NCBI GenBank assembly: GCA_016703005.1
Contig: JADJCX010000033.1
Location: 164,430 to 228,429 of the forward strand
Length of the DNA: 64,000 nucleotides
Direction of reading: 5' to 3'
Source: Flavobacteriales bacterium
GTDB taxonomy: Bacteria > Bacteroidota > Bacteroidia > Flavobacteriales_F > PHOS-HE28
The notes under the pieces were generated by a model, which saw only the letters and a list, made by a program, of their open reading frames with translations, was not told where the DNA came from and did not search any database. Made by a program: the position numbers and the translations under genes. Below are positions 8,065 through 60,671 of the stretch, in pieces; within the stretch, counting starts at the first letter, position 1, and the number at the start of each line of letters is the position of its first letter.

Positions 8065-8125
8065 GTTGTGATCAGGATCGGTGTCAGTGGGGGCTTTGGT
8101 CCCTCAGCTTCGCTTCCTTTGAAGC

Positions 8126-8764: not shown

Positions 8765-8765
8765 T

Positions 8766-9050: not shown

Positions 9051-9081
9051 TATCTGATCATCTCATTTTCCGATCCTCTGA

Positions 9082-9492: not shown

Positions 9493-9495
9493 CGT

Positions 9496-9960: not shown

Positions 9961-9963
9961 GGT

Positions 9964-10245: not shown

Positions 10246-10351
10246 CGAAAGACCCGAAAGCGGCGACCATACCTCCCGACGAAGAACAGGACAAGTCCCG
10301 CCACGATACCTGCGATGGCGTCGGTACGGATGAGAGCAGGCAGCGACCAGG

Positions 10352-11107: not shown

Positions 11108-11136
11108 TCGGTCATCTCATTGTCTGATCAACTGAT

Positions 11137-11604
11137 CTACGCCACGATCCAGTTCAACTCCGTCCGATACTCGCTCGGACTCTTAACCTCATTCGGGTTG
11201 TTCAGGTAGCTCTCCCAGAATTTCCCCGTTTCGCCGTGGCCGTTCTCGCGCACCCATTTCTGCAAGGCTGGCCATGCTTGCGCCAGTCCTTCGTATGGAC
11301 CTTGGTACACACTCCGCACGACTTTCGCCGCAGGCAGCGTGCTATTGATGACACGTCCCTGAGGCTTGATCGCCTTCGCTACTGGGAATCCGATCTCGAA
11401 GTCAAAGGTGTCTGCCGGTCGGCGATGGTGATAGGAGAACATCGGTCCGCCGTACGGCGGATGCATGCCTTGCTCGGCGAGCACCTGGATGATCTCTTGG
11501 ATCGCAGGGTCCATGTACTTCGGCATGTCGCGGCCGGGGATCACGAGCGGGATGGCAGCCGTGATGACTTCTTGAGTGGTGATGACTTCGGGTGGAGTGA
11601 TCAT
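11137..11604 (-). CDS. GyrI-like small-molecule-binding domain protein
   Basis: 155 aa. MPKYMDPAIQEI...PMFSYHHRRPADTFDFEIGFPV...VRSVYQGPYEGL...SYLNNPNEVKSPSEYRTEL is the GyrI/AraC effector-domain pattern. Confidence 0.6.
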   Translation of the reverse strand: MITPPEVITTQEVITAAIPLVIPGRDMPKYMDPAIQEIIQVLAEQGMHPPYGGPMFSYHHRRPADTFDFEIGFPVAKAIKPQGRVINSTLPAAKVVRSVYQGPYEGLAQAWPALQKWVRENGHGETGKFWESYLNNPNEVKSPSEYRTELNWIVA

Positions 11605-11641
11605 GTTGCTTGGGATTGTCGGGGCCGGGATCTTCCGGCCC

Positions 11642-12595: not shown

Positions 12596-12617
12596 GTCAG
12601 TGTAGTATCGGAGTGGA

Positions 12618-13034
12618 TCAGGCTTGAGCTTCCGTGTACGCTTTGAACCGGTCCAGGATCGCTTGCCAGCCGCCGCGTTGCATCTCCACAGGGTTCTCTG
12701 TCTCTGCATCAAAAGCTTCGGTCACCAGTGTACCTCCTTCCCTTTCGTTGAAATGGATTTCGCAGATGCGACCATCGGCCATGGTGTAGGCGATGCGCTT
12801 GTTCAGTTGAACATCGTCATACACTCCGGCGAAATCGAAGCTGAAGCTGCCATCGCGCGCGGCCATGGTGCTGCTGAATTTGCCGCCGGTGCGCAGGTCA
12901 TTGGTCGCCTTTGGGCAGTGCCAATCGTCGCTCGCCGCGTTCCATTGCGTGATGTGCGCAGGTTCTGTCCAGGTCCCCCAGACGTGGGCCACTGGTTTGT
13001 TCACGAGGGCGGAAACGGTGATGCGGGTACTCAT
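12618..13034 (-). CDS. SRPBCC family protein
   Basis: MSTRITVSALVNKPVAHVWGTWTEPAHITQWNAASDDWHCP...GTLVTEAFDAE. Confidence 0.7.
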   Translation of the reverse strand: MSTRITVSALVNKPVAHVWGTWTEPAHITQWNAASDDWHCPKATNDLRTGGKFSSTMAARDGSFSFDFAGVYDDVQLNKRIAYTMADGRICEIHFNEREGGTLVTEAFDAETENPVEMQRGGWQAILDRFKAYTEAQA

Positions 13035-13068
13035 GGTGTTGTGCGTTCGTAGTGTTGGTCTTGACTTG

Positions 13069-13462
13069 TCAATCCTCAAGGGCTTCGATGCCCTGTTCCT
13101 TCAAGCGTTGCAGGTTGTCCTTCATGGCTTGGAGTTGTTCCGGCGCGTGGCCTTTCCAATCCATCACTTCGCCGATCACGCGCAAGGCATCCTTCGTGCG
13201 GTACGATTTCGTTGGATTGCCCGGGAACTTCTTGTCCGTCAGATTAGGATCATCCTCATATGGCCCCGGGGCTTCCACGATGTAGATCCTTCCGCGTCCT
13301 TCACCGGCAGCGAGTTCAGCGCCCCAGGTAGCGGCATCCAGCGTGGCGGAGAAGTACATACTTCGCCTTGTTCCCTGGCCATAATTGGAATTGAACCGGG
13401 TTCGAGAGGTCGCCCTTCTTCAGATCGGCCTTGGTGCCGTGGTAGAACGTGGGTGATTCCAT
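13069..13462 (-). pseudogene. arr: Rifampin ADP-ribosyltransferase Arr, frameshifted
   Basis: C-terminal fragment (ORF 13069-13359) YFSATLDAATWGAELA...GRGRIYIVEAPGPYEDDPNLTDKKFPGNPTKSYRT...RVIGEV.DW.GH aligns with Arr-2/Arr-ms. N-terminus MESPTFYHGTKADLKKGDL (Arr FYHGTKA motif) is in another frame. The shift is at a C/G run near 13396-13400. Confidence 0.55.
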
Positions 13463-13474
13463 GTCGCATGCATT

Positions 13475-13975
13475 CATAGACCGGACGCGAGCAGTTCATC
13501 CAACTGATCAAGGCCCATGGTGAAGCCTTCCTTGAAGCCCATCGCCACGATCTGCTCCAGTTCTTCTGGTGAACCAAAGTGGAGGATGGCGCGCACCAAT
13601 GTGCGACCATCCGTTCTTGCTGAAGTGCGCTTCCCAACTCACCTTGGGCTTCGTGTCGTTCCCTACGCCGTGCTCATCGCAGAACGAATCGCTGCCCGAG
13701 AAGTGCGACTTCGGCCGGACGGTCTCGTAGTCGAAGAAGCACCAGTGCCGGTCGCCTTGCGGGCCTTGCATGTAGTAGAGCCAACGCCCACCTTCACGGA
13801 AGTCGAGTGCCTTGATCACGCACTCATAAGGCTTCGGAGCCCACCACTGGCAAAGGATGTCCGCATTGGTCCACGCGGCCCACACCGGATCCAGCGGGGC
13901 GTTGAAGGATCGCTCCACGGTGATCGACCGGGCGTCCTTTTGAACGATGAAGTTGAAGATCGCTGCTTTGCTCAT
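13475..13975 (-). CDS. SRPBCC domain protein (Aha1-like), C-terminus frameshifted
   Basis: ORF 13508-13975 gives ITVERSFNAPLDPVWAAWTNADILCQWWAP. The canonical C-terminus DGRTLVRAILHFGSPEELEQIVAMGFKEGFTMGLDQLDELLASGL is in another frame after EAHFS, with the shift near 13612-13622. Confidence 0.6.
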
Positions 13976-13987
13976 GGTTCAATGGGT

Positions 13988-14437
13988 TTATGGAGTGCTC
14001 AGGTAGTCGTCCAAGCGTGCGAGCGTTTGCTGGCCGCCTTCGATCGCGCCGATCTCTTTGACGGCGAAGTCCCGTGCTTCCTTGTTGGGGAAGAGGGTGC
14101 GAAGGGTCACGAGTGTTCCGCCTTCGGTTTCCTCGAAGGTGATGACGGCCTCGAATTGTTTGGGGTTCTGCCAGTCGCCGTGATCGTAGGCCAGACGGTC
14201 GATGGGGGACACCTCGGTATAGGTCACGAGATTCTCGAACACGCGGCCCTCTCCGGATGTCATCGTGAATTTCCATTGCCCACCGATGCGGACATCCATG
14301 GAAAGCGTCTTATTCGTAAAGCCGTTGGGCCCGAACCAATGATCCACATGCGCGGGATCCGTCCAAGCCTGCCACACGATCGATCGTGTGGCCTTAACGG
14401 TGCGGCTGATGATGATCTCGCGGTCACTCTTGTTCAT
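13988..14437 (-). CDS. SRPBCC domain protein (Aha1-like)
   Basis: MNKSDREIIISRTVKATRSIVWQAWTDPAHVDHWFGPNGFTN. ATGA overlap with the upstream arsR-family gene. Confidence 0.7.
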   Translation of the reverse strand: MNKSDREIIISRTVKATRSIVWQAWTDPAHVDHWFGPNGFTNKTLSMDVRIGGQWKFTMTSGEGRVFENLVTYTEVSPIDRLAYDHGDWQNPKQFEAVITFEETEGGTLVTLRTLFPNKEARDFAVKEIGAIEGGQQTLARLDDYLSTP

Positions 14438-14811
14438 GGCTTCTTCTTTTTGGCCTTCGCTGTCTTCGCGGAGGTGGCCTTGGCATCGGCCGACTTGGCT
14501 TGCAGTTCCATCAGGTAGGCATCGAGGCGATCGAAGCGCTCCTCCCACATCTGACGATACTGTTCGATCCAGGCGTCGGCTTCGCGCAGCGGTTCGGCCT
14601 TCATCTCGCAGGGGCGCCATTGGGCCTCGCGGCCGCGTGCGATGAGTTGTGCGCGTTCCAGCACCTTCAAGTGTTTGCTGATCGCCGGCAGGCTCATGCT
14701 GAACGGCGCTGCGATCTCGTTCACCGAGGCGGCACCCGTGCTCAAGCGCGCGAGAATGGCGCGTCTCGTAGGGTCGGCGAGGGCGGAGAAGGTGAGCGAG
14801 AGGCGGTCCAT
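14434..14811 (-). CDS. ArsR/SmtB family transcriptional regulator
   Basis: MDRLSLTFSALADPTRRAILARLSTGAASVNEIAAPFSMSLPAISKHLKVLERAQLI is the HTH of ArsR family. It is the first gene of the minus-strand array. Confidence 0.75.
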   Translation of the reverse strand: MDRLSLTFSALADPTRRAILARLSTGAASVNEIAAPFSMSLPAISKHLKVLERAQLIARGREAQWRPCEMKAEPLREADAWIEQYRQMWEERFDRLDAYLMELQAKSADAKATSAKTAKAKKKKP

Positions 14812-14831
14812 TGTTCCTTGAAGGGACAAAC

Positions 14832-14855
14832 GTATTAAACCAAATGGTTAAATAC
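14832..14855. promoter_or_regulatory. Putative ArsR operator (imperfect palindrome) overlapping the promoter of the ArsR-led operon
   Basis: gtattaaacc-aaa-tggttaaatac (11/12 inverted repeat) is ~20 bp upstream of the ArsR start. A Bacteroidota -7-like TAcgTTTG follows on the coding (minus) strand. Confidence 0.4.
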
Positions 14856-25353: not shown

Positions 25354-26925
25354 TCAGCGCTGCACAACGATGCGCTGCACGGAACGCGCACCACCTGAGA
25401 TCACCTCGAGGTTGTAGATGCCCTCGGCTGCAGCGCCCAGATCAAGCGCAACGCGTTGCGTTGCAGCACTGGAGCGTTGGTCGAGCACTACACGGCCCAT
25501 GGCGTCGGTAACGCGCAATTGGATGGTGCTGGTAAGGCTGCTCGGCAGTTCCACTGTGAAAATTCCCACGTTCGGATTGGGGTATACGCTAACACCGGCA
25601 AGCACTCCGAACTCCTCAATGCCCACGATATCGTTGATCCCATCAACAGTGTTGCCACAGTTGCCAAGCCATTGGTCAATGTTCGGATAGGAAACGCTGA
25701 ACTTGCCATAGAAGTCATTGAAGTTGAACGAGCAGCTCGCTTGTCCGCCGAAGAGTTGGCCTACAAAGCGACCGTTCTGGTCCCACAGGCCGCTGCCGCT
25801 GCTGCCAGGTTCGGTGGTGCCATCGTCCCAACCTTGCACATGCCAGCACTGGGCACCGCTCATTGTACCGGTGATCACCGGCTCTTCCTCAATGCTGAAT
25901 TTCTTGATGTCGCCGCTGGGGTGGTGGATAGCGCGCACCTCCGTGGCAGCCGTACCGCTCTTGTCCCAACCGCTGAAGAACACGTTGTACGCATCCGGCA
26001 AGTTGTCATCGAGAAGCAGCAGAGCGAAGTCGCTGCCAGCGCCACTGGCCAATTCGGTCGCGCCGCTAACGGTCTGGTTCATCCCGGGGTTCGTGGTAGG
26101 AGTGCAAGCCGGACTGTTCCAGTTGAAAGCGAAAACCCATGTGGCAGGATTGCTGATCATGCAGTGGTTCGCGGTCATGAAGTAGGGGACCTCGTCGTGT
26201 GCACAGTTGTCGAGCAACGAACCTGTGCAGTGGTCGCCACCACCGACCACGATGCGCGCAACACTGCGGATCTGATCTTCGTAGCCCACGCTGATCGGGC
26301 AGATCACATTGTTATTGCAGGATCCGCTTGCGCCAAAACCCTTAGCCATATCGAAGCTGTCGCGGTAGCCGTGGGTTACCTGACCAATGCGAAGCTGGCC
26401 TTGACCGGCTCTGCTTGCGGGTTCCACGTACTCGATCGTGATGCGATCGCCCTGCATGAGACCCACACCGAGAACAGTGTGCCCGGGGTGACTGGCTGCC
26501 GTGAAGGCACCCATCGTATGCCCGAGAGGGTTGTACACGAAAATTTGGCCACCCTCCGGAACCACGTAGGTGTTGAACTCGAAGTTGACGCTGAAGGCTC
26601 CCGGACATTCGATCCCCAGGCGCCACACGCGGTCGCCATTGGCGAGCGTGCTCCAAACACCGCTGTTATCGAGCGTGAAGTCGGTGGCGTGGTTGATCCC
26701 GAAGCGTTGGCGCTTGCTTCCAGCGGCAAGGCGCTCGGCGTCTTCCACCATCAGGGTCAGCGCATCCACCGCAGGCATCACGTGTACGGGTGCGGCGGGT
26801 AATGTGCTCTTGTACTCGCTCAAGCCGACCGGGCTTCCGCCGAAGGAAACCTGGGCGGAGGCGATGGGGCTGATGAGCATCGTGGCCGCAATGGCCAGTG
26901 AGGGTATCGGTTTCTTCATGATCAA
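25354..26925 (-). CDS. Trypsin-like (S1, lysyl/glutamyl-endopeptidase-like) serine protease with T9SS C-terminal domain
   Basis: Signal peptide. TGSLLDN...MTANHC (His), GSSGSGLWD (Ser). C-terminal GVSVYPNPNVGIFTVELP...GIYNLEVISGGARSVQRIVVQR. Confidence 0.6.
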   Translation of the reverse strand: MIMKKPIPSLAIAATMLISPIASAQVSFGGSPVGLSEYKSTLPAAPVHVMPAVDALTLMVEDAERLAAGSKRQRFGINHATDFTLDNSGVWSTLANGDRVWRLGIECPGAFSVNFEFNTYVVPEGGQIFVYNPLGHTMGAFTAASHPGHTVLGVGLMQGDRITIEYVEPASRAGQGQLRIGQVTHGYRDSFDMAKGFGASGSCNNNVICPISVGYEDQIRSVARIVVGGGDHCTGSLLDNCAHDEVPYFMTANHCMISNPATWVFAFNWNSPACTPTTNPGMNQTVSGATELASGAGSDFALLLLDDNLPDAYNVFFSGWDKSGTAATEVRAIHHPSGDIKKFSIEEEPVITGTMSGAQCWHVQGWDDGTTEPGSSGSGLWDQNGRFVGQLFGGQASCSFNFNDFYGKFSVSYPNIDQWLGNCGNTVDGINDIVGIEEFGVLAGVSVYPNPNVGIFTVELPSSLTSTIQLRVTDAMGRVVLDQRSSAATQRVALDLGAAAEGIYNLEVISGGARSVQRIVVQR

Positions 26926-44757: not shown

Positions 44758-45711
44758 TCAAGGCATCTGCGCTGTCCGGATGTTCGTGGGTACCGAGCCG
44801 CCCACGTTCTGGAGGATGGGATCGCGATCGTTGTCGGCCCCCACGTACTTCACCACGCCATCCATGTTCACGTCCGCGGGATGGTAGCCGTTCACCGTGT
44901 TGGTGGGAACCACCCCACCGATCGCCACAAGGATGGGATCGCGGTCGTTGTTGGCGCCCACGTATTTCAGCAGGCCATCGAAGTCCGTGTTGCCCGACCA
45001 CATCACGTGGGTACCAGCGATGAGCTGTTGCGCATCCGTTCCATAGGTGGGCGTGCTGCCGTTGGTGAGGTTGATGGTTGCGCTTGTGCTCGTGAGCGCG
45101 ACCGTATTCAGGGTCATTACCGCCAGATGATTCCGATGGCGAAGGGCGATGAAGTAGGCGTCTGCCGACAACGGGAAGCGCACCGGTGAGAAGCCGTCCA
45201 TCTCCACCACATCGCCATCGGCCTGCAGCAATGCGCTGCGACTGTGCAGCACGTTGGCATTGTCATTCTTGTCGCGCAATTCCAGCACCACCCAATCGAT
45301 GATGGCATTGCTTCCGGGGAGATCGATGATGGGCTGCGTGGTGCTTTCGCCGCCACCGCCCACGAAGGTGTAGCCCAGAGCGGTGTAAGGTTCGTTCAGC
45401 GGCAACAGCCCGCTGACGCGCAGGCCATCGCTCATCGCTCCGCTTGTGTAAGGGCCTTGCAAGAAGGCCTTCACGTTCACGAGCACGCGCACGGCGCTGG
45501 ACTGCTGGTAGCCTTGCGTTACCTGTCCGCCGGGAACAGTGCCTGTCCCAATGATCGGTTCACCTATCGACCAACTGATGGTGTTGTTCGGCAGCACGGT
45601 GGTGCCGCCATCGGTGCCGATGAGGACTTGCGCGCGCAGCCCGTTGACCAGCGCGAGCAGTGCGATCGCGATCACGCTGCGCAAAGCGCTTCGATGTGTT
45701 CGTGTGTTCAT
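44758..45711 (-). CDS. Secreted hypothetical protein
   Basis: Signal peptide MNTRTHRSALRSVIAIALLALVNGLRAQ. No recognised domain. Confidence 0.45.
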   Translation of the reverse strand: MNTRTHRSALRSVIAIALLALVNGLRAQVLIGTDGGTTVLPNNTISWSIGEPIIGTGTVPGGQVTQGYQQSSAVRVLVNVKAFLQGPYTSGAMSDGLRVSGLLPLNEPYTALGYTFVGGGGESTTQPIIDLPGSNAIIDWVVLELRDKNDNANVLHSRSALLQADGDVVEMDGFSPVRFPLSADAYFIALRHRNHLAVMTLNTVALTSTSATINLTNGSTPTYGTDAQQLIAGTHVMWSGNTDFDGLLKYVGANNDRDPILVAIGGVVPTNTVNGYHPADVNMDGVVKYVGADNDRDPILQNVGGSVPTNIRTAQMP

Positions 45712-45860
45712 GGTCCCGTGTGTTGTGGGGATGATCACGATCACTTGTGGCTCTGTGCTTCCAACACGCTGCGCAACTGCTGCATCAGCGCGGTGTTCGC
45801 GTCCAGTTGCGCGCGGATGGCGTTGAGGGCCTCGTCCTTTGCCGCGTTCCCCGCGCGCAA

Positions 45861-46655
45861 TCATACGATCTCGGCCTGTTGCGCCCCGATCATCGCGTTC
45901 AGCTCCTTCACCGCATTCACGAGCATGTAGGTCATGGCGCTGTTGTCCACTTCCAGGTATTCCGTGCCATCGATCACCAGTGTGTCGATCATGTAAGGTG
46001 CCACCTCGCGGAGTTGTTGCGCGATCACGCCCACGTACTCAATGGTCGTATCGGTCTTGGCCAGGCTGTTGTACCGGAAGTGCACGGGCTCAATGGCCAG
46101 TACGGCGCCCAGGCCATCGCCGTACGGCCGCACATCGCGCTTCAAGCGTTGATCGGAGAACACGGCCCATGAGCCGCCGCCGGTCTTGTTCGCCGAGCCG
46201 TTCACGCTAAGCAGGGCCGTGGGCCCCAGGGTACCGATGCCCACGTTGCCGCTGGCCGTTAGGGTCATCACAGATAAGGTGTTGGTGATGAAGGTCAGGT
46301 CATGCGCGCTCCTCGTACCGAACCATGCTGAAGCATTGCCAGGGAAATAGGAACCCAAGATGATATTGCCATCCGTATGGCTAAATCCACCGCCGACGCC
46401 TGGTGTACGTACAGTGAGTTTATCGGTGGATGTTGTTGTGCCGATCCCCACGTTGCCGTTGGTCAACAAGGTGATCTGGGGGCTGCTATTGTTGGTGAAG
46501 AAGCTCAGGCTGTGGTTGCTCTTCGTGCCCAACCATCCTCCACTGGTGCTCCCCCACATAGGACCCCACGGTGATCGTACCATCGGTATGGGTGAACCCG
46601 AAGTTGCTGGTGGCCGTTCGCACGGTGAGCTTATCGGTGGGTGCGTTCGTACCAA
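45861..46655 (-). CDS. C-terminal fragment of the giant protein with tail-fibre intramolecular-chaperone (peptidase S74-like) domain
   Basis: GGSWAVFSDQRLKRDVRPYGDGLGAVLAIEPVHFRYN...EYVGVIAQQLREVAPYMI resembles the auto-cleaving C-terminal chaperone of phage tail fibres/endosialidases. Confidence 0.55.
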   Translation of the reverse strand: MVRTHPPISSPCERPPATSGSPIPMVRSPWGPMWGSTSGGWLGTKSNHSLSFFTNNSSPQITLLTNGNVGIGTTTSTDKLTVRTPGVGGGFSHTDGNIILGSYFPGNASAWFGTRSAHDLTFITNTLSVMTLTASGNVGIGTLGPTALLSVNGSANKTGGGSWAVFSDQRLKRDVRPYGDGLGAVLAIEPVHFRYNSLAKTDTTIEYVGVIAQQLREVAPYMIDTLVIDGTEYLEVDNSAMTYMLVNAVKELNAMIGAQQAEIV

Positions 46656-48054
46656 TACCCACGTTGCCTTCGACGATCGCTCCGTTCGTGGGTGCGGCTG
46701 TTGTACCGGAGAAGTTGGCGCCTACGGCCATGCCGCCTTCCACATCCAATTTGCTGGCAGGCGTGGTGGTGCCGATGCCCACGTTCGTTCCATCGTCGGT
46801 CATCACGCCATCGGTGAGTGTGGTGCCGTTCCACTTGGGCACCTGGTTCGTTGTGGCGCTGCTCACCTGCGGGTCCGTTTCAGCCGCCACGTTCTGCCAA
46901 GTGGCCGCACCGTTCGCATCCGAAGTGAGTACGCGGCCAGCGGCTTGTGTGCCATCGGCGATGCGCACGTTGCCCGCTACATGCAACTTGGCTGCGGGCG
47001 CGGTGGTGCCGATGCCGACGTTGCCTTCGATGATGGCTCCGTTCGCCGGTGCGGCTGTTGTACCGGAGTAGGTGGCGCCTACGGCCATGCCTCCTTCCAC
47101 ATCCAATTTGCTGGCGGGCGTGGTGGTGCCGATGCCCACGTTGCCCGTCGCATCTTCCACCATGGCGGCATCACCGAGAATGGTTCCCGTATTGCCGAAT
47201 TTGGCCAGGTGGTTCAAGGTGCCGTTGGCGTTCACCGCCGGGCCTACGGCACCTTGTGGGCCGACGGGGCCTTGCGGACCAACGGCCTTGCCGGCATTGA
47301 TCACGCTGGCATCGCTCAGCGTTACGTAGAGCGAATCGTTGGTGATCGCTGCGGTCGTTACCGATACCCCTTGCGGGCCGGTGGGGCCCGTGGATCCCGT
47401 GGGACCTTGCACACCCGTTGGGCCTTGGTCGCCTACCTCGCCAGCGATGCTCGCCGCCCATGAGCTGTATGTGCCGGAACCCATGGTCCTGTCCACCAGC
47501 ACCGTGATGTTAGCCACTCCGCCGCTGGTGATGTTCCCTTCCATCCATAGAGCCGTAGTGGGGTAAACGCTGATGCGTACACGGGAACCTATGTTATAGG
47601 CGGTGTTCCGGTCCAACGCGAACGACTTTGAACCGGTGCCGATGGTCTGCGAGGTGAAGGAAAAGGCGTAGTAGCCAGGACCCGATGCTCCAGTTGCTCC
47701 ATTGGACCCGTTCATACCGGTTATGGCGATGGTCCATGGGCTATACGTACCTGAGCCGAGCGCTCCTTGTAGCGATACTGACATGGATGTCCCGCTGGGG
47801 GTGTATGCAGTGACAGTACCGAACATGTAGTGTGTCGTGGGGTTGCCGGTCCTGCTGATCCTTACGTTATCGCCCACTTGATAAGCCAGGCCCGTTTGCG
47901 TGGCGAACGTGATAGTGCCACTTGGGGCAATGGTCATTGCCGTTGTGGACGTTGCGTAGTACCCCGGCCCAGTGGCTCCTTGCGGTCCTGTTGCTCCTGT
48001 TGCACCCGTTGCTCCTGTTGCGCCTACCGCTCCTTGCGGCCCTGTAGCGCCCAC
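46486..48054 (-). CDS. Central/C-proximal fragment of the giant protein (collagen-like Gly-X-Y tracts and beta-helix repeats)
   Basis: GATGATGATGATGPQGATGP, GPTGVQGPTGSTGPTGPQG, GPQGPVGPQGAVGP. GNVGIGTTTPASKLDVEGGMAVGA appears twice. Confidence 0.6.
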   Translation of the reverse strand: MGATGPQGAVGATGATGATGATGPQGATGPGYYATSTTAMTIAPSGTITFATQTGLAYQVGDNVRISRTGNPTTHYMFGTVTAYTPSGTSMSVSLQGALGSGTYSPWTIAITGMNGSNGATGASGPGYYAFSFTSQTIGTGSKSFALDRNTAYNIGSRVRISVYPTTALWMEGNITSGGVANITVLVDRTMGSGTYSSWAASIAGEVGDQGPTGVQGPTGSTGPTGPQGVSVTTAAITNDSLYVTLSDASVINAGKAVGPQGPVGPQGAVGPAVNANGTLNHLAKFGNTGTILGDAAMVEDATGNVGIGTTTPASKLDVEGGMAVGATYSGTTAAPANGAIIEGNVGIGTTAPAAKLHVAGNVRIADGTQAAGRVLTSDANGAATWQNVAAETDPQVSSATTNQVPKWNGTTLTDGVMTDDGTNVGIGTTTPASKLDVEGGMAVGANFSGTTAAPTNGAIVEGNVGIGTNAPTDKLTVRTATSNFGFTHTDGTITVGSYVGEHQWRMVGHEEQPQPELLHQQ

Positions 48055-49942
48055 CGGCCCTTGCGGCCCCGTGGCACCAGTAGCTCCTTGCGCACCAACA
48101 GCACCCGCGAGCGGCTGCGAGGTGATACCACCGTCACCGGATCCATCGTGATCATGTTCGGGCAGAAGAGCTTATACACTTGCATGGTGTAGCCGGACTG
48201 GTTCACCACGTAGGCGTAGTTGTCAGCCACGGTCACGGCAAATGATCCTGTACCGGTGGCGATGGTTGCACTGAGACTGGGTGCGGCCGGGTTGCTGATG
48301 TTCCACGCTGTCAGGGTGTTGTTGGCGTTCACCACAAAAGCGTAATTGCTCGCTATGGTCATCGCAAAAGCACCACTACCTAGGCGATGTTGGCAATGAG
48401 GCTGGGCGCAGCCGGGTTCACGTTGAACACCAACATGTTACCAGCCGTATTCGCCAGGCATAGGTGCCCGATACGGCGACGGTATAGGCGCTGGAGACCG
48501 TTGAGATAAGTGGCGCTGAGGCTGGGTGCTGCCGGGTTGCTGACGTTGAACACCATCATGTTGGTGCTGTTGAAGTGTACCACATAAACATAGTTGCCCC
48601 CTGCGGCCACGTCCCGGGGTGGGTACCGGTGGCTATGGTGCTGCTATGAGGCTGGGCGTTACCGGGTTGCTGATATCGAAAACCATGAGGTTGTTACTCG
48701 CGGAGTTCACCAAGTACATGTAGTTGCCCATCACGGCCGCGGAACGAGGGCTCGTACCGGTTGCGACGGTGGCAACCAGGCTGGGTGCAGCCGGGTTGCT
48801 GATGTTGAACACCGACATATTGCTACTTCCGAAGTTCAACACATAAGCGTAATTGCCCGCCACGGTCAAAGCACGCGGACTGGTTCCGGTGGCGATGGTG
48901 GCGCTGAGGCTGGGCGCGGCCGGGTTGCTGATGTTGAACACCATCATGTTGTTGCTGAAGGCGTTCACCACGTAAGCGTAGCTACCGGCCACGGCCCACG
49001 TCAGTGGGGTCTGGAGTCGATACCGGTGGTGATGGTGGCCGTGGTGCTCAAGCAGGCGAGGTTACCTCCTGGCACGTTCCCGCTCCCGAAAATGCTCTCC
49101 GCGCTCAGGTTCTGCCAGCTGGCATTTCCGTTGGCATCGCTGGTGAGGATGTTGCCGCCCTGTGACCGTCGGCCAGTAGTGTTGTGCCAGCCATGCAACT
49201 TGGCCGCTGGGGTGGTGGGTGCCAATGCCACATTGGCTTCGATGGCTCCACTCGCCGGTGCGGCTGTTTGTGCCGGAGTAGGTGGCGCCGCCGCCCTCCT
49301 TCCACATCAATCTGCTGGCGGGCGTGGTGGTGCCGATCCCCACGTTGCCACCGTTCGTGTTTGCGATGTGTTCGCCGTAGTTGACCCATGGTGCGGTCTG
49401 CGAGGTGATCGTACCTGTACTCGCATCCATGGTGATCATGTTCGGGCAGTAGAGATCATACACCGTCATGTTGTTGCTGTTGATGTTCACCACGTAGGCG
49501 GTGCCGCCCTCCACCGCTACGAATTGCGGGCCGGTGCCGGTGGCGATGGTGGCCCTGAGGGTGGGTGCTTCCGGGTTGCTGATGTCGAACAGCAACATGT
49601 TGTTGCTGGTGCCATAAGCGTGGTTTCCTGCCCGGCCACGGATTCGGAGCCTGTCAGCCGCGATCGTGGCCACCAGGGCCGGAGCGGACGGAGTGCTGAT
49701 GTCGAACACATGCAAGTTGTGGGACCCGGAACTCACCACGTAGGCGTGGCTGCCAGCAATGGCCACGGATTGGGGTGTGGGTCCCGTAACGACGATGGCG
49801 ATCAATGTGGGCGCGGCCGGGTTGCTGATGTTGAACACCTGCATCGTGTTGCTGCCCCGGTTCACGGCGTAGAGGTAACTACCAGCCACCTGGAGCGAGG
49901 TCGGTTCTGGCCCGGTATAGGTGGTGGAGACCAGGCTGGGCG

Positions 49943-51088
49943 CTAAAGGGGCAATGATGTCGTACGTGAGGATGCGCTCCGGCGAGTTGTGAGCGACACG
50001 TACAGGAAGTTCCCGGATATGGCCACCGACCGAGGGTACAACCCTATGTTAACGCTGCCTTCAAGTACCGGCGCCGATGGAACGCTGATATCATAGATGC
50101 GCATCGAACTGCCGCCGGATGTGATGACGTAGGCGTAGCCACCGCCGATGGCCATGGAGATCGGCAGCATGTCGATGCCGCTTACGGTGCTTGCAAGAAC
50201 AGGTGCAGCCGGCGTGCTGATATTGAACACGTTCATGGATCCGTCATCCTGGTTCAGGACATAGGCATGATCTCCGTTGATCGTCACGAAACGGGGTTTC
50301 AACCCTGTTCCTATAGCGGCCGTTTGACTCGCACAGCCTAAGGTGCCCCCCGGCACGTTCCCGCTGCCGAAAACGCTCTCCGCGCTCAGGTTCTGCCAAC
50401 TCGCGTTGCCGTTCGCATCGCTGGTGAGCACCTTGGCTGCGCCTTGTGAGCCGTCCTGGTATTTGATGCCGCCCACCACATGCAATGTGGTGTCCGGCGC
50501 GCTGGTGCCGATGCCCACGCGCCTGCCATTGTTGTGCAGGGTATCGCCGCTCAACACCCAACCGGGCGTACCGGCCAGGCTGGAGAGGTCCACGCCGTTG
50601 CCGCCGGTGATGTAGAGCGTGTCGTTGCTCAGCGTGAGCGTTTGCGGTACGCTGGTGGTATTGCTATCGCTGGTGAGGGCGTGCATGGCGAAGGGCACTG
50701 CCTTGAAGGGCCCGCCGCTGAGGAAGGTGTAGTTGGTGCCGCCGGTCACATCCACCGCCACGCTGTAGGTGATGGGTTGTCCGCTGGCCCACTGCACATC
50801 AGCGAACGTGGGAATGGCCGAGCCGCCCACCGGCGTGCCCTGCCCGATGGTGAGGGCGATGAGCCCGTAGGCGTCGGTGCTGGCGCCGTGCGTCTCCACG
50901 TAGGTGTCCGAGGGGCCCACCTGAATGGTCACTTGCACGCCCACGGGCTGGCTGGGCACGGGGTCGCCAACGTTGTCGCGTACCACGGCCTGGTAGCTGA
51001 AGCCACTGAAGTTCTGCGCGATGCCTTGCACCCCGATGAGGAGGGTGAAGGCGAGCAGCAACGAACGGAACGAATGCGTAGAGAGCAT
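49943..51088 (-). CDS. N-terminal fragment of the giant protein (signal peptide, beta-helix, first LVIVD-like repeats)
   Basis: MLSTHSFRSLLLAFTLLIGVQGIAQ. VLTSDANGNASWQNLSAESVFGSGNVPGG. YAYVLNQDDGSMNVFNISTPAAPVL and YAYVITSGGSSMRIYDISVPSAPVL are LVIVD-like. Confidence 0.6.
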   Translation of the reverse strand: MLSTHSFRSLLLAFTLLIGVQGIAQNFSGFSYQAVVRDNVGDPVPSQPVGVQVTIQVGPSDTYVETHGASTDAYGLIALTIGQGTPVGGSAIPTFADVQWASGQPITYSVAVDVTGGTNYTFLSGGPFKAVPFAMHALTSDSNTTSVPQTLTLSNDTLYITGGNGVDLSSLAGTPGWVLSGDTLHNNGRRVGIGTSAPDTTLHVVGGIKYQDGSQGAAKVLTSDANGNASWQNLSAESVFGSGNVPGGTLGCASQTAAIGTGLKPRFVTINGDHAYVLNQDDGSMNVFNISTPAAPVLASTVSGIDMLPISMAIGGGYAYVITSGGSSMRIYDISVPSAPVLEGSVNIGLYPRSVAISGNFLYVSLTTRRSASSRTTSLPL

Positions 51089-51231
51089 GGTGTTGGTTTT
51101 CGGTGAGGCAAAGCAGCCGTGTTACCGCGCACGCATCAATCGGGTATCCCTATGATGTTGCTGCTACCTTGTCATAGGATCCTATGATGCATGCACAGTG
51201 GTTCCGCGCAAGCTGCGTAACGTTGGCGCGG

Positions 51232-54200
51232 ATGCGCCGGTCATCGCCATTCACACACGCCAGAGCTGCCGTGCATTGCATGGCCGGTCTTCTCCTTGCA
51301 GGCGCATGGCTGTGCACAGGCACGGCCTACGCCCAGTTGGACACCGTGGATGTCCAACTCGACGCCATCACCGTGGAGGACGGCCTGCCCATGGGCTATG
51401 TGCTGGCCATGGCGCAGGACAGCACGGGCTACCTCTGGCTAGGCACCAACGATGGCCTCGCGCGATACGATGGATACGACTTCACCGTGTTCCGCCAAGA
51501 TGCGCAGGACAGCAGCAGCATCGGCGCGAACCGCATCAGCAGTTTGCTGGTGGATCGTGAAGGCTACCTGTGGGTGGGCTTTGCGCCTTTCGGTCTGGAC
51601 CGCTACGATCCACGTACAGGGCGCTTCGCGCATGTGCGGGTGGATGGCTTGGGTGCTGATGTGCGATCTACCCTGCTGGCGGATCTCTGCCTTGATGCAC
51701 GAGGGCGGGTATGGATGACCGCTACGATACCGAACGACGTCGTGGCCTACGTCGTGGATCCTGCATTACCAGGCCCACTGGTTGTGATGGAGCCGCGCGA
51801 ACTGCGTCCGCCCATCGCACCGTTGCGGAATGCTTTCGCCTTCATCGGTCCCGGCGGCGATCCGTGGTTCACCAGCCCGGATACCATTCGCTGCGCACAC
51901 TATGGAAGCGACGGCTCTGTTCAACTGACCGATCGGGCGCACAGCATCCCTTGGTGGATGGACGATGGCATCCGGCAGTCACCGATCCTGATGACCGACC
52001 CTGTGAGCAGCACCATGCTGGTGACCGAGCCTGGTTACCTCACCCGCATGAACGCTGGCAAGGCAGCTCCCTTGGATACGATCCACCTGCCTTTGGCCGA
52101 TCACAGGAAATGCAAGGTGCTTGACTCCCACGGTCGGCTTTGGGCGGACCGTTACGAGGAACTCGATTCGCGGGTGGACGTGGTGTCTGGCAGAACGGAG
52201 GTCGTGAAGACCTTCGTCGAGGGCGCCGCCGGTGGGCGCTCGCCGATCAATGGGTTGACCCCGATCTTGGAGGACCGGGCCGGTAACATCTGGCATCAAT
52301 CAGGCGGCTACGGCCTGTTCTGGTCGAACACGCGCAACGAACGTTTCAAGCGGGTGGGTGCTGGAGATCTGATCGGCCTCAATGCGGGTAATGTGGACGG
52401 GACCGTGCTGATCAGCAACGTCGGTAGGGGACCGGTCGCGCGGTACCTGATCTCCAAGGAGGTCTGGAAAGGCCATCCCCAGCGTATCCCCGCATCGCGA
52501 CTACTTGATGTTCGGTGCCGTGGACGATCAAGGCAGGTTGTGGGCGGCCGAAGTGGTTCCGGGCTCACGCGCTATCCGGGTCGTGCTCTTCGAGAACGAT
52601 CGCCGCATCGATGTCCCGTCCCTCGCGAACGATCGCAGCCGTGCGATCCTGCCGGGTAGGAACAACACGCTATGGGTGGTCTCTTGCGATACGGTCGATG
52701 TCTTGACAAGCCTGGTGCATGTTGATGCTCGCACGGGTGACATCATTCGCCGCTACACGCCACCCCCGGTTTTCGGTTCTGGTGCCAACGAGCAGATCAA
52801 ATCGATCACTCACCATCCCGATGGCACCATCTGGATGGGTACGGAACGCGGCCTGCACCACTTGGACCCCAAGACGGGTGTTTGGAAGGTCTACCGGCAT
52901 GATGAACGCGATCCGCATTCGCTGCCGAGCGACCTGGTCCTCACCACCTGCCTGGACCCGGCCGATCCGGAGCACGTGCTCTGGGTGGGCACGAACGGCG
53001 GTGGCCTCGCGCGCTTCGACCTGCGCACACGAAAATTCAAGCGATACACAACCAAGGACGGCTTGCCGAACAATGTGATCTACGGCATCCTGAGCGATGC
53101 GCGCAAGAACCTGTGGATCGGCACCAACCAGGGCTTATGCCAATTCGATCCGCATTCGGGTGCGATGACGACGTACACCACGGAGGACGGCTTACCCAGC
53201 AACGAATTCAACACCTACAGCTACGCGAAGGCCGATAACGGCGAACTCTGGTTCGAGGGCATGGGCGGTGCCTTCCACTTCAACCCCGAGGACTTCTACG
53301 AGACGATCCCCGCGTCGCCTACGGTGATCACCAGCCTGAAGCTCGTGGGCAAGGCTGTGACAGTGGCCGGTCTCGGCAACGCCACCGGTGAAGGCTACGA
53401 ACTCCCTGCGCCCATCGAGTACGTGCGCAGCATCACCCTGCCGTACAGCGAGCGCATGATCACCTTCTCCTTCGCGTGCATGGACCACACCGCACCGCTG
53501 AAGAACACGTTCCGCTACAGGCTCGAGAACTTCAGCAAGGACTGGGTGGAAGTGGGCACCGTGCACGAGGCCACCTTCACCAACCTCGATCCCGGCACCT
53601 ACACCTTCCGCGTGCAAGGGCGCAACAGCGCGGGCGTTTTGGATGAACGCGGCGCGGCGATGCAACTCATCATCACGCCGCCGTGGTGGGGCACCTGGTG
53701 GTTCAGGATCATTGCGGCGCTATCCATAACAGCCGGAGTGGTCGCCTTCTACCGCTACCGCCTGGCGCAAGCGGTGAAAGTGGTGCGCGTGCGAGCGCAT
53801 CGCGCGCGACCTTCACGATGAGATCGGTTCCACCTTGAGCAGTGTGCAGTTGTACAGTGCCGTGGCCGAGAGCAAGACCAAAGGCACCCAACCCGAAACG
53901 CACGAACTGTTGGGCCGGATCACCGAAGGCACCACCTCTGTGCTGGAGGCCATGAACGATATCGTGTGGGCCGTGAACGCCGAGAACGATGACCTGGCCC
54001 ATGTGGTGCAACGCATGAACAGCTATGCCGAGCGCATGGCGGACGCGCGTGATTGTGCGCTCCGTTTCGAGGTGCAGGAGGGCATCGCCTCACAGCCCCT
54101 GGGCATGACACAGCGCAAGAACCTCTACCTCATCTTCAAGGAGGCGCTCAACAATGCGATGAAGTATTCGGCGTGCAAGAACCTGCTCATCGAACTGCGC

Positions 54201-54449
54201 AAAGAAGGTTCCGGCCACCTCTTGCGGGTCCGGGACGATGGCATCGGATTCGAGGTGGATGCGCAACGGCCGGATAACCTCGGTGGCAACGGACTTGGCA
54301 ACATGCGTCGCCGCGCCGACGAGATGGGCGGCACCTTGCACGTGCGTTCGGCCCCGGGGCAAGGCACCACCGTGGAACTGCGCTTCTCCGCCGTGCCGGG
54401 CGAAATATCAGTGGATCATATGAGCAGCCCCGTCGATACGCCCCGGTAA
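51232..54449 (+). CDS. Hybrid sensor histidine kinase of the two-component-regulator-propeller/Y_Y_Y family, split by two frameshifts
   Basis: Reg_prop repeats (GYLWLGTNDGLARYDGYDF, GTIWMGTERGLHHLDP, LWVGTNGGGLARFD, LWIGTNQGLCQFDP). Y_Y_Y (GTYTFRVQGRNSAG). TM. H-box RIARDLHDEIGSTLSSV. HATPase_c (GNGLGNMRRRADEMGGTL). Frame changes near 52470-52505 and 53780-53800. Confidence 0.6.
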
Positions 54450-54459
54450 TTTCGCCCAC

Positions 54460-55098
54460 ATGAAAGTGCGTGTTGCCGTGTTCGACGACCATGCCAAACG
54501 GCGTGATGGCCTGCGCATGCTCATCGATTCCACGGACAACCTGGAATGCGTCGGCCTCTTCGCCGATTGCCGCGACGTGGTGCGCCATGTGCTGGAGTGC
54601 AAACCGGACGTGGTGCTCATGGACATCGACATGCCGCATGTGGACGGGGTGCAGGGGGTGATCCTCCTGCGCAAGCAGTTCAAGGACCTGAAGATCCTGA
54701 TGCAAACGGTCTTCGAGGACAACGAGAAAATATTCGCCGCGATCCTCGCCGGTGCCGATGGCTACCTGCTGAAGCAGACCTCACCCACCAAGTTGTTGGA
54801 AGCGATCGTGGAGGTCACGCAAGGCGGTGCACCCATGACACCCGCCATCGCCAAGAAGGTCTTGCAACTCTTCGCGCAGCGCAGCGGCGCAGCCAAGCCG
54901 AACGATTTCCAACTCACCGAGCGCGAGACGGAGATCCTGAAATTGCTGGTGGACGGCTTCAGCTACAAGTCCATCGCGGCCAAGTGCTACATCAGCTCCG
55001 GCACGGTGAACACGCACATCAGCCACATCTACGAAAAGCTGCAGGTGAATTCCATGGCCAGCGCGGTGAGCGTGGCACTGCGGGAGGGTTTGGTGTGA
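54460..55098 (+). CDS. Response regulator, NarL/LuxR family (REC + HTH)
   Basis: MKVRVAVFDDH...VVLMDIDMPHVDG (REC). TERETEILKLLVDGFSYKSIAAKCYISSGTVNTHISHIYEKL (LuxR HTH). Confidence 0.85.
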   Translation: MKVRVAVFDDHAKRRDGLRMLIDSTDNLECVGLFADCRDVVRHVLECKPDVVLMDIDMPHVDGVQGVILLRKQFKDLKILMQTVFEDNEKIFAAILAGADGYLLKQTSPTKLLEAIVEVTQGGAPMTPAIAKKVLQLFAQRSGAAKPNDFQLTERETEILKLLVDGFSYKSIAAKCYISSGTVNTHISHIYEKLQVNSMASAVSVALREGLV

Positions 55099-58639: not shown

Positions 58640-60031
58640 CTATTCCTTCACCACCATCCGGGTGGTCGACCCATGAGACGTGCGCAACGTAACGTGGTAC
58701 AGCCCGGCCGGTTGCGCGGATAGATCCGCAGTGCATGTCGCGCCGGTGACCGTGGAGCGGAGCACCGCTTGCCCCAGCGCATTGCGCACGAGAATGCTCT
58801 CCGGTTGCTGCGCCCGATCGAGCTGGATCGTGACGGCGCCGTTCGTCGGGTTCGGGTGGATCATCAACACCATGTCTGTTTCCACCGCGTTGATGCTTTG
58901 GGCCGGTGCGCACGCCGCCACCACCTGCACCGGTACATCGGTGTTCACGTTCGTTCCATCGCCCAATGTGCCCGATGCGTTGTTGCCCCACGTCCACAGC
59001 GCGCCGCTATTGAGCAACGCCATGCTATGGAAGTCGCCGCCGGCAATGGTGTGTACATCCGACAGACCGGCTACCTGCACCGGCAGCAATTGGTCGGTGC
59101 TGCCGCCAATGCCCAACTGCCCTTGGGCGTTGCGACCCCACACGTGCAGGGTGCCGTCGCTCTTGATGGCCAACGAATGGTACTGGCCACCGGCAATGGC
59201 CGCCACATCGGTGAGCCCGCTCACTTGCACCGGCACGTTGCTGTACACGATGGTGCCGTCGCCCAACTGGCCGAACTGGTTGTAACCCCAGGTCCACACG
59301 GTGCCATCGTTCTTCAGCGCCATGCAGTGGTAGCGACCGCTGGCAATGGCGGACACACCGCTGAGACCGTTCACCTGCACCGGTGTATTCGCATCGTTGT
59401 TCGTGCCATTGCCCACTTGTCCATACGTGTTGTTGCCCCAACCCCAAACGGTGCCATCGGTACGCAGGGCCACCGAGTGATCGAAGCCCGCACTCACGGC
59501 GTACACACCGGTCAGGTTGGCCACCTGCACCGGAACGCTGCTATCGGTGTTCGTGCCATTACCCAACTGGCCCTCGGTATTGCTGCCCATTGTCCACACG
59601 GTGCCATCGCTCTTGGCGGCTACTGTGTGGTAGTTGCCGCGCGCCGCATCGATCACAGCGCTCAGGGCCGTGATCTGTACGGGCGCATTGCGATCGATCG
59701 TGGTCCCGTCGCCCACCTGGCCGTAGGGGTTCGAACCCCACGCCCAGAGCTCGCCACTGGTGGTGATGGCCAAGGAATGCGCGCCGCAACCGTGGGGCAG
59801 CGCAAAAACGCCGGTGAGCCCGACCACCGCTACCGGTGCATTGAAGGAGATGAAGTTGCCCGTGCCCAGTTCGCCGCTGCCGTTGTTGCCCCAGGATTGA
59901 ACGTTACTGTTCGCGCAGATCAACAGCGAATGGCCACCACCACCGGCAATGACCTGGGCATTGGTGGTGCAAGCGAGTGACGGGATGATCGTTGCGAAGA
60001 GCAACGAAAGGAGTTGGGGAGCGTTGCTCAT
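58640..60031 (-). CDS. RCC1-repeat beta-propeller protein with T9SS C-terminal sorting domain
   Basis: Signal MSNAPQLLSLLFATIIPSLACTTNAQ. At least 6 RCC1 repeats (WGNNGSGELGTGN / WGSNPYGQVGDGT ...). C-terminal MIHPNPTNGAVTIQ...GLYHVTLRTSHGSTTRMVVKE. Confidence 0.65.
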   Translation of the reverse strand: MSNAPQLLSLLFATIIPSLACTTNAQVIAGGGGHSLLICANSNVQSWGNNGSGELGTGNFISFNAPVAVVGLTGVFALPHGCGAHSLAITTSGELWAWGSNPYGQVGDGTTIDRNAPVQITALSAVIDAARGNYHTVAAKSDGTVWTMGSNTEGQLGNGTNTDSSVPVQVANLTGVYAVSAGFDHSVALRTDGTVWGWGNNTYGQVGNGTNNDANTPVQVNGLSGVSAIASGRYHCMALKNDGTVWTWGYNQFGQLGDGTIVYSNVPVQVSGLTDVAAIAGGQYHSLAIKSDGTLHVWGRNAQGQLGIGGSTDQLLPVQVAGLSDVHTIAGGDFHSMALLNSGALWTWGNNASGTLGDGTNVNTDVPVQVVAACAPAQSINAVETDMVLMIHPNPTNGAVTIQLDRAQQPESILVRNALGQAVLRSTVTGATCTADLSAQPAGLYHVTLRTSHGSTTRMVVKE

Positions 60032-60139
60032 CGGGTGCAAGCCGCTGCGGCCTTGTGGACGATCGCGGTGCACGTGAAAGTATCGTTCCGGGCAACATGC
60101 TGCCGGGTATCCCGGCCTGCCCCTATCGGAGCAGGGCCC

Positions 60140-60583
60140 TCACTCCGTCACCTTGGCGCTGCTCGCCTTGCGGTGCGGGTACGTGCCGATGATGTGGCGC
60201 TTCACGAAGCGCACGGTGCCGTCCGTGGTAATGAACTTGTTGTACAGCTTGTGCGGCACGCCGAAGAACTCGTACTCGCTGCCGTCGCCGAAGTAGAGGG
60301 TGAGCACCTGGGCCTTGAACTGCCAGTTGCTGATCATGGTGGCGGTGGTCTTCGCGAAGTCTTCGCCGTTCTTCTCGTGCGTTTCCGGGTGTATGCTCTC
60401 CAGGAATTTGTACGCCTCAATGACCTTCTGGCTAGTTTCCTCCGCTTGCTTCTTCTCGGCCTCGTCCAGGAAACGGTCGGGATGGTGCTTCTTCATCCAC
60501 GACTTGTACAGCGTGTTCAGCTCCTTCAGCGTGGCGGTGGCCGGGGCTTCCAGCAGCTTGCGGTATTCGGCTATGCGTTTCAT
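60140..60583 (-). CDS. J-domain (DnaJ-like) protein with C-terminal KTSC domain
   Basis: LKELNTLYKSWMKKHHPDRF has the HPD motif. C-terminal LYFGDGSEYEFFGVPHKLYNKFITTDGTVRFVKRHIIGTYPHRK is the KTSC-like pattern. Confidence 0.6.
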   Translation of the reverse strand: MKRIAEYRKLLEAPATATLKELNTLYKSWMKKHHPDRFLDEAEKKQAEETSQKVIEAYKFLESIHPETHEKNGEDFAKTTATMISNWQFKAQVLTLYFGDGSEYEFFGVPHKLYNKFITTDGTVRFVKRHIIGTYPHRKASSAKVTE

Positions 60584-60671
60584 ATCGAACGGGTTCCGGT
60601 GCCCCTATGGAGCGGGCATGCGGAGAAGCCACCAAGGATCGGCGGCAGTCGGCATACGACGTTGCGGTGGA

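Follow-up and report, generated by a model that had tools for sequence, protein, structure and literature searches.

A fragmented gene for a secreted fibre with LVIVD repeats, collagen-like tracts and a Peptidase_S74 domain in a Flavobacteriales genome, its frame breaks probably being consensus errors

The closest characterised counterparts of the gene analysed here are the superfamily of mosaic adhesive trimer (MAT) fibres of Bdellovibrio bacteriovorus, specifically its S74 subgroup, and the S74 tail fibres of phages. MAT fibres are encoded on the chromosome, carry a signal peptide and resemble phage tail fibres, with a conserved N-terminal beta domain followed by a capping-loop beta-helix and then by a terminus that is either of the S74 type or a variable adhesive tip; Table S3 of the same paper already includes fibres of the FCB group, among them a collagen-like one (Caulton et al. 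2024, PMC10769870). In phage S74 fibres and spikes, such as the K1F endosialidase and the L-shaped tail fibre pb1 of T5 (PDB 3GW6, 4UW8), and in the eukaryotic MYRF ICA domain (7dc3), a C-terminal Ser-Lys chaperone is released once it has folded the trimeric beta-helix upstream of it. Two other groups of surface proteins were also compared, namely LVIVD/YVTN proteins, which form seven-bladed, four-stranded propellers from ~43-aa repeats (Adindla et al. 2004, PMC2447325; Methanosarcina 1l0q), and the collagen-like proteins Scl1/Scl2 of Streptococcus, Lcl of Legionella and BclA of Bacillus, in which Gly-X-Y tracts serve as a trimeric stalk. Here, we describe a gene with features of each of these systems on the minus strand of a 64,000-nt stretch from a Flavobacteriales bacterium (assembly GCA_016703005.1, contig JADJCX010000033.1, positions 164,430 to 228,429). 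This whole stretch is referred to as the window, and all coordinates refer to it; related proteins and loci bear P and L numbers, respectively.

Eight collinear open reading frames (ORFs) of 381, 275, 76, 119, 76, 112, 522, and 264 aa lie on the minus strand between 51088 and 45861, and a preliminary description of the locus was right to read them as one gene shattered into at least eight pieces. They are the fragments of a single 5.3-kb gene that runs from 51088 to 45744 and encodes a secreted fibre. The preliminary span of ~5.2 kb had the correct start but ended too early, at 45861: the TGA at 45863-45861 is in frame, and the same frame runs for 39 further codons to 45744. Because these codons encode the coiled-coil tail of the intact homologs, we place the end of the gene at 45744. 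The gene was reconstructed from a three-frame map with a manual frame path, homolog-guided phmmer searches, and frameshift-aware dynamic programming, the last of which was used for frame mapping because phmmer envelopes were too coarse and missed short excursions. The reconstructed product has ~1,782 aa, and an intact ortholog of 1,679 aa at locus L004 covers the same parts. From the N-terminus, it consists of a signal peptide, a beta-rich domain, a head module, propeller 1, a connector, propeller 2, a shaft of collagen-like tracts and beta domains, beta-helix modules, the S74 domain, and a coiled coil, located as follows.

45744-51088, minus strand: whole reconstructed fibre gene, ~1,782 codons after frame correction, with ~18 frame shifts and one in-frame TGA
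51014-51088, minus strand: Sec-type signal peptide MLSTHSFRSLLLAFTLLIGVQGIAQ, read from the sequence; no lipobox Cys; equivalent N-termini in P0001-P0004
50669-51013, minus strand: N-terminal beta-rich domain of ~115 aa (FSYQAVVRD...VPFAMHA), directly after the signal peptide
50336-50668, minus strand: head segment with SNDTLYITGGNGVDLSSL, the first of the capping-loop modules (RRVGIGT), and, at the transition to propeller 1, LTSDANGNASWQNLSAESVFGSGNVPGG (motif positions; alignment A1)
49446-50335, minus strand: propeller cassette 1, Cys252 to Cys548, seven LVIVD blades (Pfam LVIVD and Lactonase matches; alignment A3)
49055-49445, minus strand: inter-propeller connector with CPNMITMD, two GNVGIGT beta-helix modules, and a second LTSDANGNASWQNLSAESIFGSGNVPGG (three-frame view)
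48162-49054, minus strand: propeller cassette 2, Cys679 to Cys975, seven LVIVD blades (Pfam, three-frame view, alignment)
47236-48161, minus strand: collagen-like shaft (Pfam Collagen 5.9e-9), with one frame shift at ~48130, at the propeller/collagen junction
46173-47235, minus strand: distal beta-helix region with six xNVGIGTxxPxxKL capping-loop modules (motif list; PHROG tail-fibre families) and a frame shift at ~46555
45864-46172, minus strand: Peptidase_S74 intramolecular chaperone / autoproteolysis domain (Pfam PF13884), with SDQRLK at 46157-46140
45861-45863, minus strand: in-frame TGA in a conserved C-terminal helix (window EIV*LRAGNAAKDEAL, homolog EIEDLRTANAAKDEAL; P0004 and L006 read through here)
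45744-45860, minus strand: C-terminal coiled-coil tail LRAGNAAKDEALNAIRAQLDANTALMQQLRSVLEAQSHK, then the true stop; kept in P0002-P0005 and L004

By sequence, the S74 domain at the C-terminus is genuine. Profile PF13884 matches the ORF 45861-46655 over positions 1-54 of 58 with 43.5 bits (cut-off 22) and the reconstruction with 40.2 bits, and SDQRLK, the sole SD...K in the protein, fits the catalytic SDxxxK motif with its Ser-Lys dyad (motif definition in PMC10769870). A phmmer search against PDB sequences aligned SDQRLK with the catalytic (S->A)DLRAK of the MYRF ICA domain 7dc3. Among the MAT structures compared, which included those of the S74 subgroup such as Bd3182 (PDB 8ojn/8onb/8onc) and 8ond, the same search matched the tip of Bd3182 (8ojn, E 2e-3, capping loop aligned) and Bd2133 (8ond, E 0.13). 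The tail-fibre-type chaperone that had been proposed for this end of the protein is thus borne out by Pfam, PHROGs, and the MYRF and Bd3182 alignments, and the outcome that would have refuted it, a lack of S74 matches in the last 130 aa, did not arise. By analogy with the characterised S74 proteins, self-cleavage is predicted at the Ser of SDQRLK.

In PHROG, the C-terminal 308 aa also match 21 families of tail fibres (best 9e-22), in each case at the C-terminal end of the profile, and tblastn finds 27-35% identity to phage tail fibres, T5-like L-shaped fibres included. Matches of the C-terminal 300 aa to so many phage tail-fibre families and proteins might indicate the remnant of a prophage tail-fibre gene instead of a cellular gene, but we regard this as very improbable. 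The gene is flanked not by phage genes but by those for EttA, a two-component system, and a conserved secreted protein; the same four-gene neighbourhood occurs in ~20 Flavobacteriales genomes; the product has a Sec signal peptide; and a relative of its N-terminal part is encoded on 1 of 2.9 million viral contigs. In contrast to phage S74 fibres, the gene thus lies outside a phage genome and encodes a signal peptide, and its product has collagen, propellers, and a Bacteroidota-specific N-terminal domain where phage fibres have a virion-attachment domain.

The fibre gene is cellular and is not unusual for its clade. A search of 5.8 billion proteins returned 331 matches at E<=1e-10, and ~25 of the best 120 combine LVIVD with Peptidase_S74. 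These LVIVD-plus-S74 relatives are intact proteins of 1,200-1,700 aa from metagenome-assembled genomes (MAGs) of Flavobacteriales, where they are named "tail fiber domain-containing protein" or "beta-propeller fold lactonase family protein". Together with the ~20 syntenic loci and the published MAT superfamily (PMC10769870), they count against the earlier view that such an architecture is unusual for a cellular protein. In the literature searched, we found no description of LVIVD-plus-S74 fibres; the intact family is recurrent but uncharacterised in Flavobacteriales. An LVIVD protein of Bdellovibrio (P0077) was considered as a further fibre and rejected, as it is a plain LVIVD protein.

Both propeller cassettes are recognisable despite the frame breaks. 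Pfam LVIVD exceeds its cut-off in five of the raw fragments and matches the frame-corrected protein in 7 stretches with 2e-42. The 14 blades (the more than 10 LVIVD repeats noted before) are arranged as 2 x 7 and are in register with seven intact homolog cassettes. After correction, the cassettes measure 344 and 345 aa, compared to 343-348 aa in the homologs. The entire protein contains four cysteines, which bracket the two propellers with a Cys-Cys spacing of 296 in both, and these bracketing positions do not vary among the nine cassettes, from six proteins, that were aligned. The nearest intact cassette, residues 222-568 of P0001, is 51% identical to cassette 1 of the window, and its structural model has a predicted local distance difference test score (pLDDT) of 89 and a predicted template modelling score (pTM) of 0.83. 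It comprises 28 strands forming seven four-stranded blades, with the two cysteines in the first and last strands, which share a blade; its best PDB match is the YVTN propeller of the Methanosarcina S-layer protein 1l0q (E 1e-14, 23% identity). Taking the fold from this 51%-identical model, we assign each window cassette as a probable seven-bladed beta-propeller of the LVIVD/YVTN type. Here the propeller is a Cys-bracketed cassette within a fibre, whereas in the described LVIVD/YVTN surface proteins it forms one module within a monomeric protein of the S-layer or PKD type.

The shaft combines collagen-like and beta-rich elements. Gly-X-Y runs of 16, 5, 9, and 5 triplets (48105-47962, 47718-47674, 47442-47362, and 47280-47239) confirm the collagen-like tracts reported earlier, with Pfam Collagen scoring 29.4 bits in the ORF 46486-48054 and 36 bits on the reconstruction (cut-off 27.2). 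Two beta-rich domains of ~80 aa (47961-47719 and 47673-47443) interleave with these tracts; against PDB sequences, they gave only spurious matches to designed armadillo repeats. The ORF containing the collagen shaft also matches PHROG tail-fibre families. The protein has nine xNVGIGTxxPxxKL modules in all. The internally triplicated module of the preliminary description is supported by the motif LTSDANG, which occurs three times, but not by CPNMITMD (twice) or xNVGIGT (nine times). Although the Gly-X-Y tracts resemble the trimeric stalks of Scl1/Scl2, Lcl, and BclA, the fibre has no LPXTG or other known anchor, and its trimerisation is probably driven by S74 and not by a globular V or C1q-like domain. 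An Scl/Lcl-type collagen adhesin is ruled out by the missing LPXTG and by NCBIfam scores of 40 bits for SclB and 37 bits for Lcl, against cut-offs of 325 and 500.

At the other end, the signal peptide MLSTHSFRSLLLAFTLLIGVQGIAQ at 51088-51014 is followed by the N-terminal beta-rich domain, for which the AlphaFold model predicts a beta-sandwich of 6-7 strands (pLDDT 64-87 for residues 28-130). This domain has more than 2,300 homologs, and the named ones among the best 120 are all from Bacteroidota. It matches no Pfam family; against the PDB, Foldseek retrieved only generic beta-sandwiches, and a profile search gave no relative. The adjoining head segment has 82 invariant columns among five orthologs in alignment A1. 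As previously described, the signal peptide is not accompanied by a C-terminal sorting domain of the type IX secretion system (T9SS): neither Por_Secre_tail nor TIGR04183 matched the reconstruction, and an identity as T9SS cargo is ruled out on this basis. Such sorting domains are found in three other, intact proteins of the window (58643-60139, minus strand; 266-2707, plus strand; 25354-26925, minus strand), one of which is a propeller protein with RCC1 repeats. A T9SS is therefore present in the organism but apparently not used by the fibre, in which no known signal for export across the outer membrane was found.

Several of these features are shared with MAT fibres. The window gene is likewise chromosomal and non-phage, and encodes a signal peptide followed by a beta-rich domain of ~115-130 aa, recurring V-G-x-G/N-x-x-x-P-x-x-x-L capping loops in the shaft, a C-terminal S74 domain with SDxxxK, and a mosaic domain content. 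In contrast to MAT fibres, it has two complete in-line LVIVD propellers (the word "propeller" appears 0 times in the text and supplements of PMC10769870) and long collagen tracts, is ~1.7 times longer, has a dedicated two-component system next to it, and belongs to a Flavobacteriales bacterium without a known predatory lifestyle.

Module order varies among the relatives. The nearest genomic relative, L004 (JADKHI010000003.1; 87% identity in the N-terminal part), and P0001 have the order propeller-collagen-propeller, P0002 has propeller-modules-propeller without collagen, and P0003 has two propellers back to back, while the window has propeller-modules-propeller-collagen. That this order is unlike those of the closest orthologs, L004 and P0001, and that tandem blade repeats with a 129-nt period lie exactly in the damaged zone (48510-48996, 70% matches) could point to mis-assembly, either by collapse or shuffling of repeats or by the joining of separate loci into a chimeric gene. 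We consider this improbable. The preliminary description spoke of perfect repeats, but the DNA copies within the gene are merely 60-88% identical. Collapse or mis-assembly of repeats, which it named next to indel errors, is not what the reconstruction indicates, since both cassettes have seven blades, canonical length, and equal Cys-Cys spacing, only one N-terminal and one S74 domain are present, and synteny is kept on both sides. Furthermore, each domain junction of the window has a counterpart in some intact homolog, such as the propeller-modules-propeller order of P0002 or the "...E-DPQV...VPKWNG" junction carried by P0003 and P0004, which argues for the shuffling of cassettes at conserved junction motifs, not for mis-assembly.

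The frame breaks are real features of the assembly, and the earlier count of at least six between 48.0 and 50.0 kb was too low. By eye, the three-frame view reveals ~16 shifts within 49995-48140 and one more near 46555, for ~18 overall, while the frameshift-aware alignment guided by intact P0002 with a stiff penalty called 11 in 50147-48070. By direction, 11 of the shifts are -1 and 7 are +1. Cassette 1 is in an intact frame to ~49995 and then has at least three shifts (~49998, 49660, and 49630), the connector contains the densest cluster (~7 in 180 nt), and cassette 2 has ~6 (~49011, 48646, 48620, 48508, 48458, and 48381). The cluster overlaps both the tandem blade repeats and the least conserved part of the gene among species, where DNA identity is ~70% compared to 80-84% in the N-terminal and collagen parts.

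Judging by sequence comparisons within the gene and with its relatives, these ~18 frame shifts and the TGA are likely to be local consensus errors of the assembly and not real mutations, which agrees with the indel errors named in the preliminary description as one possible cause. Between the broken stretch 49365-49100 and the intact paralogous module 47165-46900, which are ~92% identical, 170 nt contain ~8 indels and ~8 substitutions; two intact paralogs, 46630-46785 and 46987-47142, differ at 12% of their sites with zero gaps. Natural decay of bacterial pseudogenes yields several-fold more substitutions than indels, so that a ratio of ~1:1 favours a consensus artefact. The frame-corrected propellers retain 77% and 79% of the family-conserved sites, compared to 70-95% in the seven intact cassettes, and the cassettes are uncollapsed despite ~16 events, as insertions and deletions balance. 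Similar damage is found in a sister MAG, L007 (JADKCV010000010.1), the second MAG of the L004 species, whose ortholog is broken into at least eight ORFs. L007 and L004 are more than 98% identical over a 6.3-kb stretch including the gene, within which they differ by ~25 small indels and a roughly equal number of substitutions. From their isolate names, we take both to belong to a long-read activated-sludge MAG series. The kept conserved sites, the canonical cassette lengths, and the damage in the sister MAG together favour an artefact, and consensus indels in Nanopore assemblies are a documented cause of fragmented gene calls (PMC9262707). We suspect that the long-read consensus was poor, or that polishing failed, at a locus that varies between strains.

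The full alignment of L004 and L007 has many indels in short homopolymers or right at GAT-C, and substitutions set their kinase regions ~8% apart, which makes this locus a hot spot of strain-to-strain variation as well. The L007 indels at GAT-C, along with the TGA, one kinase shift, and one propeller shift at such sites, raised the idea of a GATC (Dam-type) association of the indels, which was rejected, as 3 of 19 events lie within 8 nt of a GATC compared to 2.4 expected (P 0.44). Over the whole window, GATC occurs 8.5 times per kb, more than twice the ~3.6 per kb expected from base composition. The suggestion that the whole assembly is error-prone was likewise rejected. A hidden Markov model of GC phase outlines clean, gene-sized frame blocks throughout the window except at 48.0-50.0 kb, the profile matches of UvrB (683 aa) and EttA (564 aa, encoded only 100 nt from the locus) span the full length, and genes elsewhere that had looked split turned out to be separate and complete.

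Several observations weigh against consensus error and against the wider interpretation of the gene. The damage is confined to 45.86-53.8 kb, with several genes of 500-800 aa intact elsewhere in the window, and some of the indels are 2-5 nt long and outside homopolymers. The most similar repeat pair (88%) is clean, so the repeats alone do not explain the location. The linked sensor kinase gene is also frameshifted, as could likewise be expected if a dispensable module were decaying as a whole. No other assembly of this species was found, the best matches having 87-88% aa identity among genome contigs (genome_contigs) and 74% among metagenome contigs (metagenome_contigs). As for the affiliation of the fibre, its membership in the MAT superfamily is probable, with an N-terminal domain likened to theirs by position, size, and beta content.

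Some of these points equally suit a genuine pseudogene, in which the indels and the TGA are real mutations that inactivated, in this lineage, both the fibre gene and the sensor kinase cognate to it. Loss under pressure from phages or predators typically strikes surface fibres. The restriction of the breaks to one region with EttA, UvrB, and T9SS cargo genes intact, the involvement of two functionally linked genes, the nonsense codon, and the multi-base indels outside homopolymers all agree with decay. Nevertheless, we consider a pseudogene unlikely. Besides the ~1:1 ratio of indels to substitutions against the paralog and conserved residues that are not lost in excess, the 1.9-kb shattered zone has zero in-frame stops once frame-corrected, and the GC content at third codon positions is still 0.70-0.79 in the fragments. 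The net length stays within 1-3 aa per cassette despite ~16 events, contrary to the usual deletion bias, and seven shifts in 180 nt would be implausible in a young pseudogene. It is also rather doubtful that the breaks are real and reflect rapid, locus-specific inactivation of an undescribed fibre family, e.g. under phage or predator pressure or by an indel-prone process. Overall, a propeller-bearing S74 fibre gene with breaks that are consensus errors is the best explanation of the locus as a whole, to which we assign a probability of roughly two in three.

We infer from these domains that the product is a secreted homotrimeric fibre resembling a phage tail fibre, including its trimer formation, cleavage, disulfides, surface display, and regulation, and the earlier reading as a self-trimerising fibre or adhesin is sensible. 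The Sec signal peptide would export the chain, and the N-terminal beta-sandwich would lie nearest the cell, the position proposed for it in MAT fibres. The shaft would combine collagen triple helix with intertwined beta-helix modules that bear xNVGIGTxxPxxKL capping loops. At the C-terminus, the S74 domain may bring three chains into register, nucleate trimer folding, and chaperone the upstream beta-helix, before releasing itself through a cut at the Ser of SDQRLK, like the S74 domains of endosialidase, T5 pb1, MYRF, and Bd3182; the collagen tracts would both require and reinforce the trimer. The two propellers of each chain appear to be inserted in line as self-contained units, with the Cys pair of each as a probable disulfide clasp joining its N- and C-termini. 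Because the first and last propeller strands share a blade and carry this Cys pair, the chain would leave and re-enter the shaft at the same point. A trimer would thus display six lateral propellers, which are the likely ligand-binding units. Its expression is probably controlled by the divergent Y_Y_Y sensor kinase and the LuxR-type regulator via a palindromic operator.

The genes flanking the fibre gene are conserved. In ~20 syntenic Flavobacteriales loci, a divergent sensor kinase and a LuxR-type regulator are encoded upstream, and a homolog of the 317-aa protein directly downstream. In the window, this neighbourhood comprises the following features.

44758-45711, minus strand: downstream 317-aa secreted protein with two KYVGA(N/D)NDRDPIL repeats (DxNxDG-like), co-oriented with the fibre gene
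51089-51270, no strand assigned: divergent control region of ~180 nt (alignment of seven orthologous upstream regions)
51271-55098, plus strand: divergent two-component system of a sensor kinase (Reg_prop/Y_Y_Y/HisKA_3) and a LuxR-type response regulator (tblastn, Pfam content of orthologs, synteny)

The gene for the 317-aa protein is probably in the same operon as the fibre gene, and a terminator-like hairpin (44712-44689) is found at its 3' side. The protein is without a match in Pfam and NCBIfam, and its first 80 aa recur at the start of larger T9SS proteins in L001 and L004. A small protein with DnaJ and KTSC domains is encoded near the fibre locus both in the window (60143-60604, minus strand) and at the P0002 locus (L001, 16956-17396).

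On the other side, the sensor kinase gene (51271-54449, plus strand) is split into three ORFs by exactly two 1-nt shifts at ~52450 and ~53792. These were placed by tblastn and frameshift-aware dynamic programming, with three guide proteins giving identical sites. The response regulator gene (54460-55098) is intact. The control region contains the perfect palindrome TCATAGGATCCTATGA (51172-51187) and a third half-site 16 nt away (51149-51156), as well as a conserved GCTGCTTTGCC box at 51107-51117 of the plus strand, read as its complement. At the same positions, orthologous loci have TCATTGGAACCAATGA and GTCATTGG, and all three half-sites of the window share the same T->A change relative to these loci. 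The palindrome is probably the operator of the adjacent LuxR-type regulator.

Far from the fibre locus, the region 7310-14850 of the window encodes at least six AHSA1/SRPBCC-domain paralogs (~7310-7810, 9499-9963, 12191-12541, 12621-13100, 13670-13954, and 13991-14530), along with an ArsR-type helix-turn-helix gene (14437-14847) and a glyoxalase-like gene (9085-9495).

The locus is a worked example of a surface-protein gene that is locally shattered within an otherwise clean assembly, and automatic annotation would list eight hypothetical proteins here, plus two or three fragments of the kinase. The intact family occurs widely among Flavobacteriales of wastewater and other habitats and would extend cellular tail-fibre-like adhesins, known as MAT fibres, beyond Bdellovibrio. 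By analogy with the characterised systems, its members would have a new layout, with Cys-clasped, seven-bladed propellers threaded into a collagen and beta-helix shaft that is folded by a self-cleaving S74 chaperone. This does not overturn current understanding, as mosaic fibres are expected to swap binding domains. The dedicated two-component system and its co-varying palindromic operator form a testable regulatory circuit, and this operator and the insertion of Cys-clasped propellers are the most attractive leads for the biology of the family.

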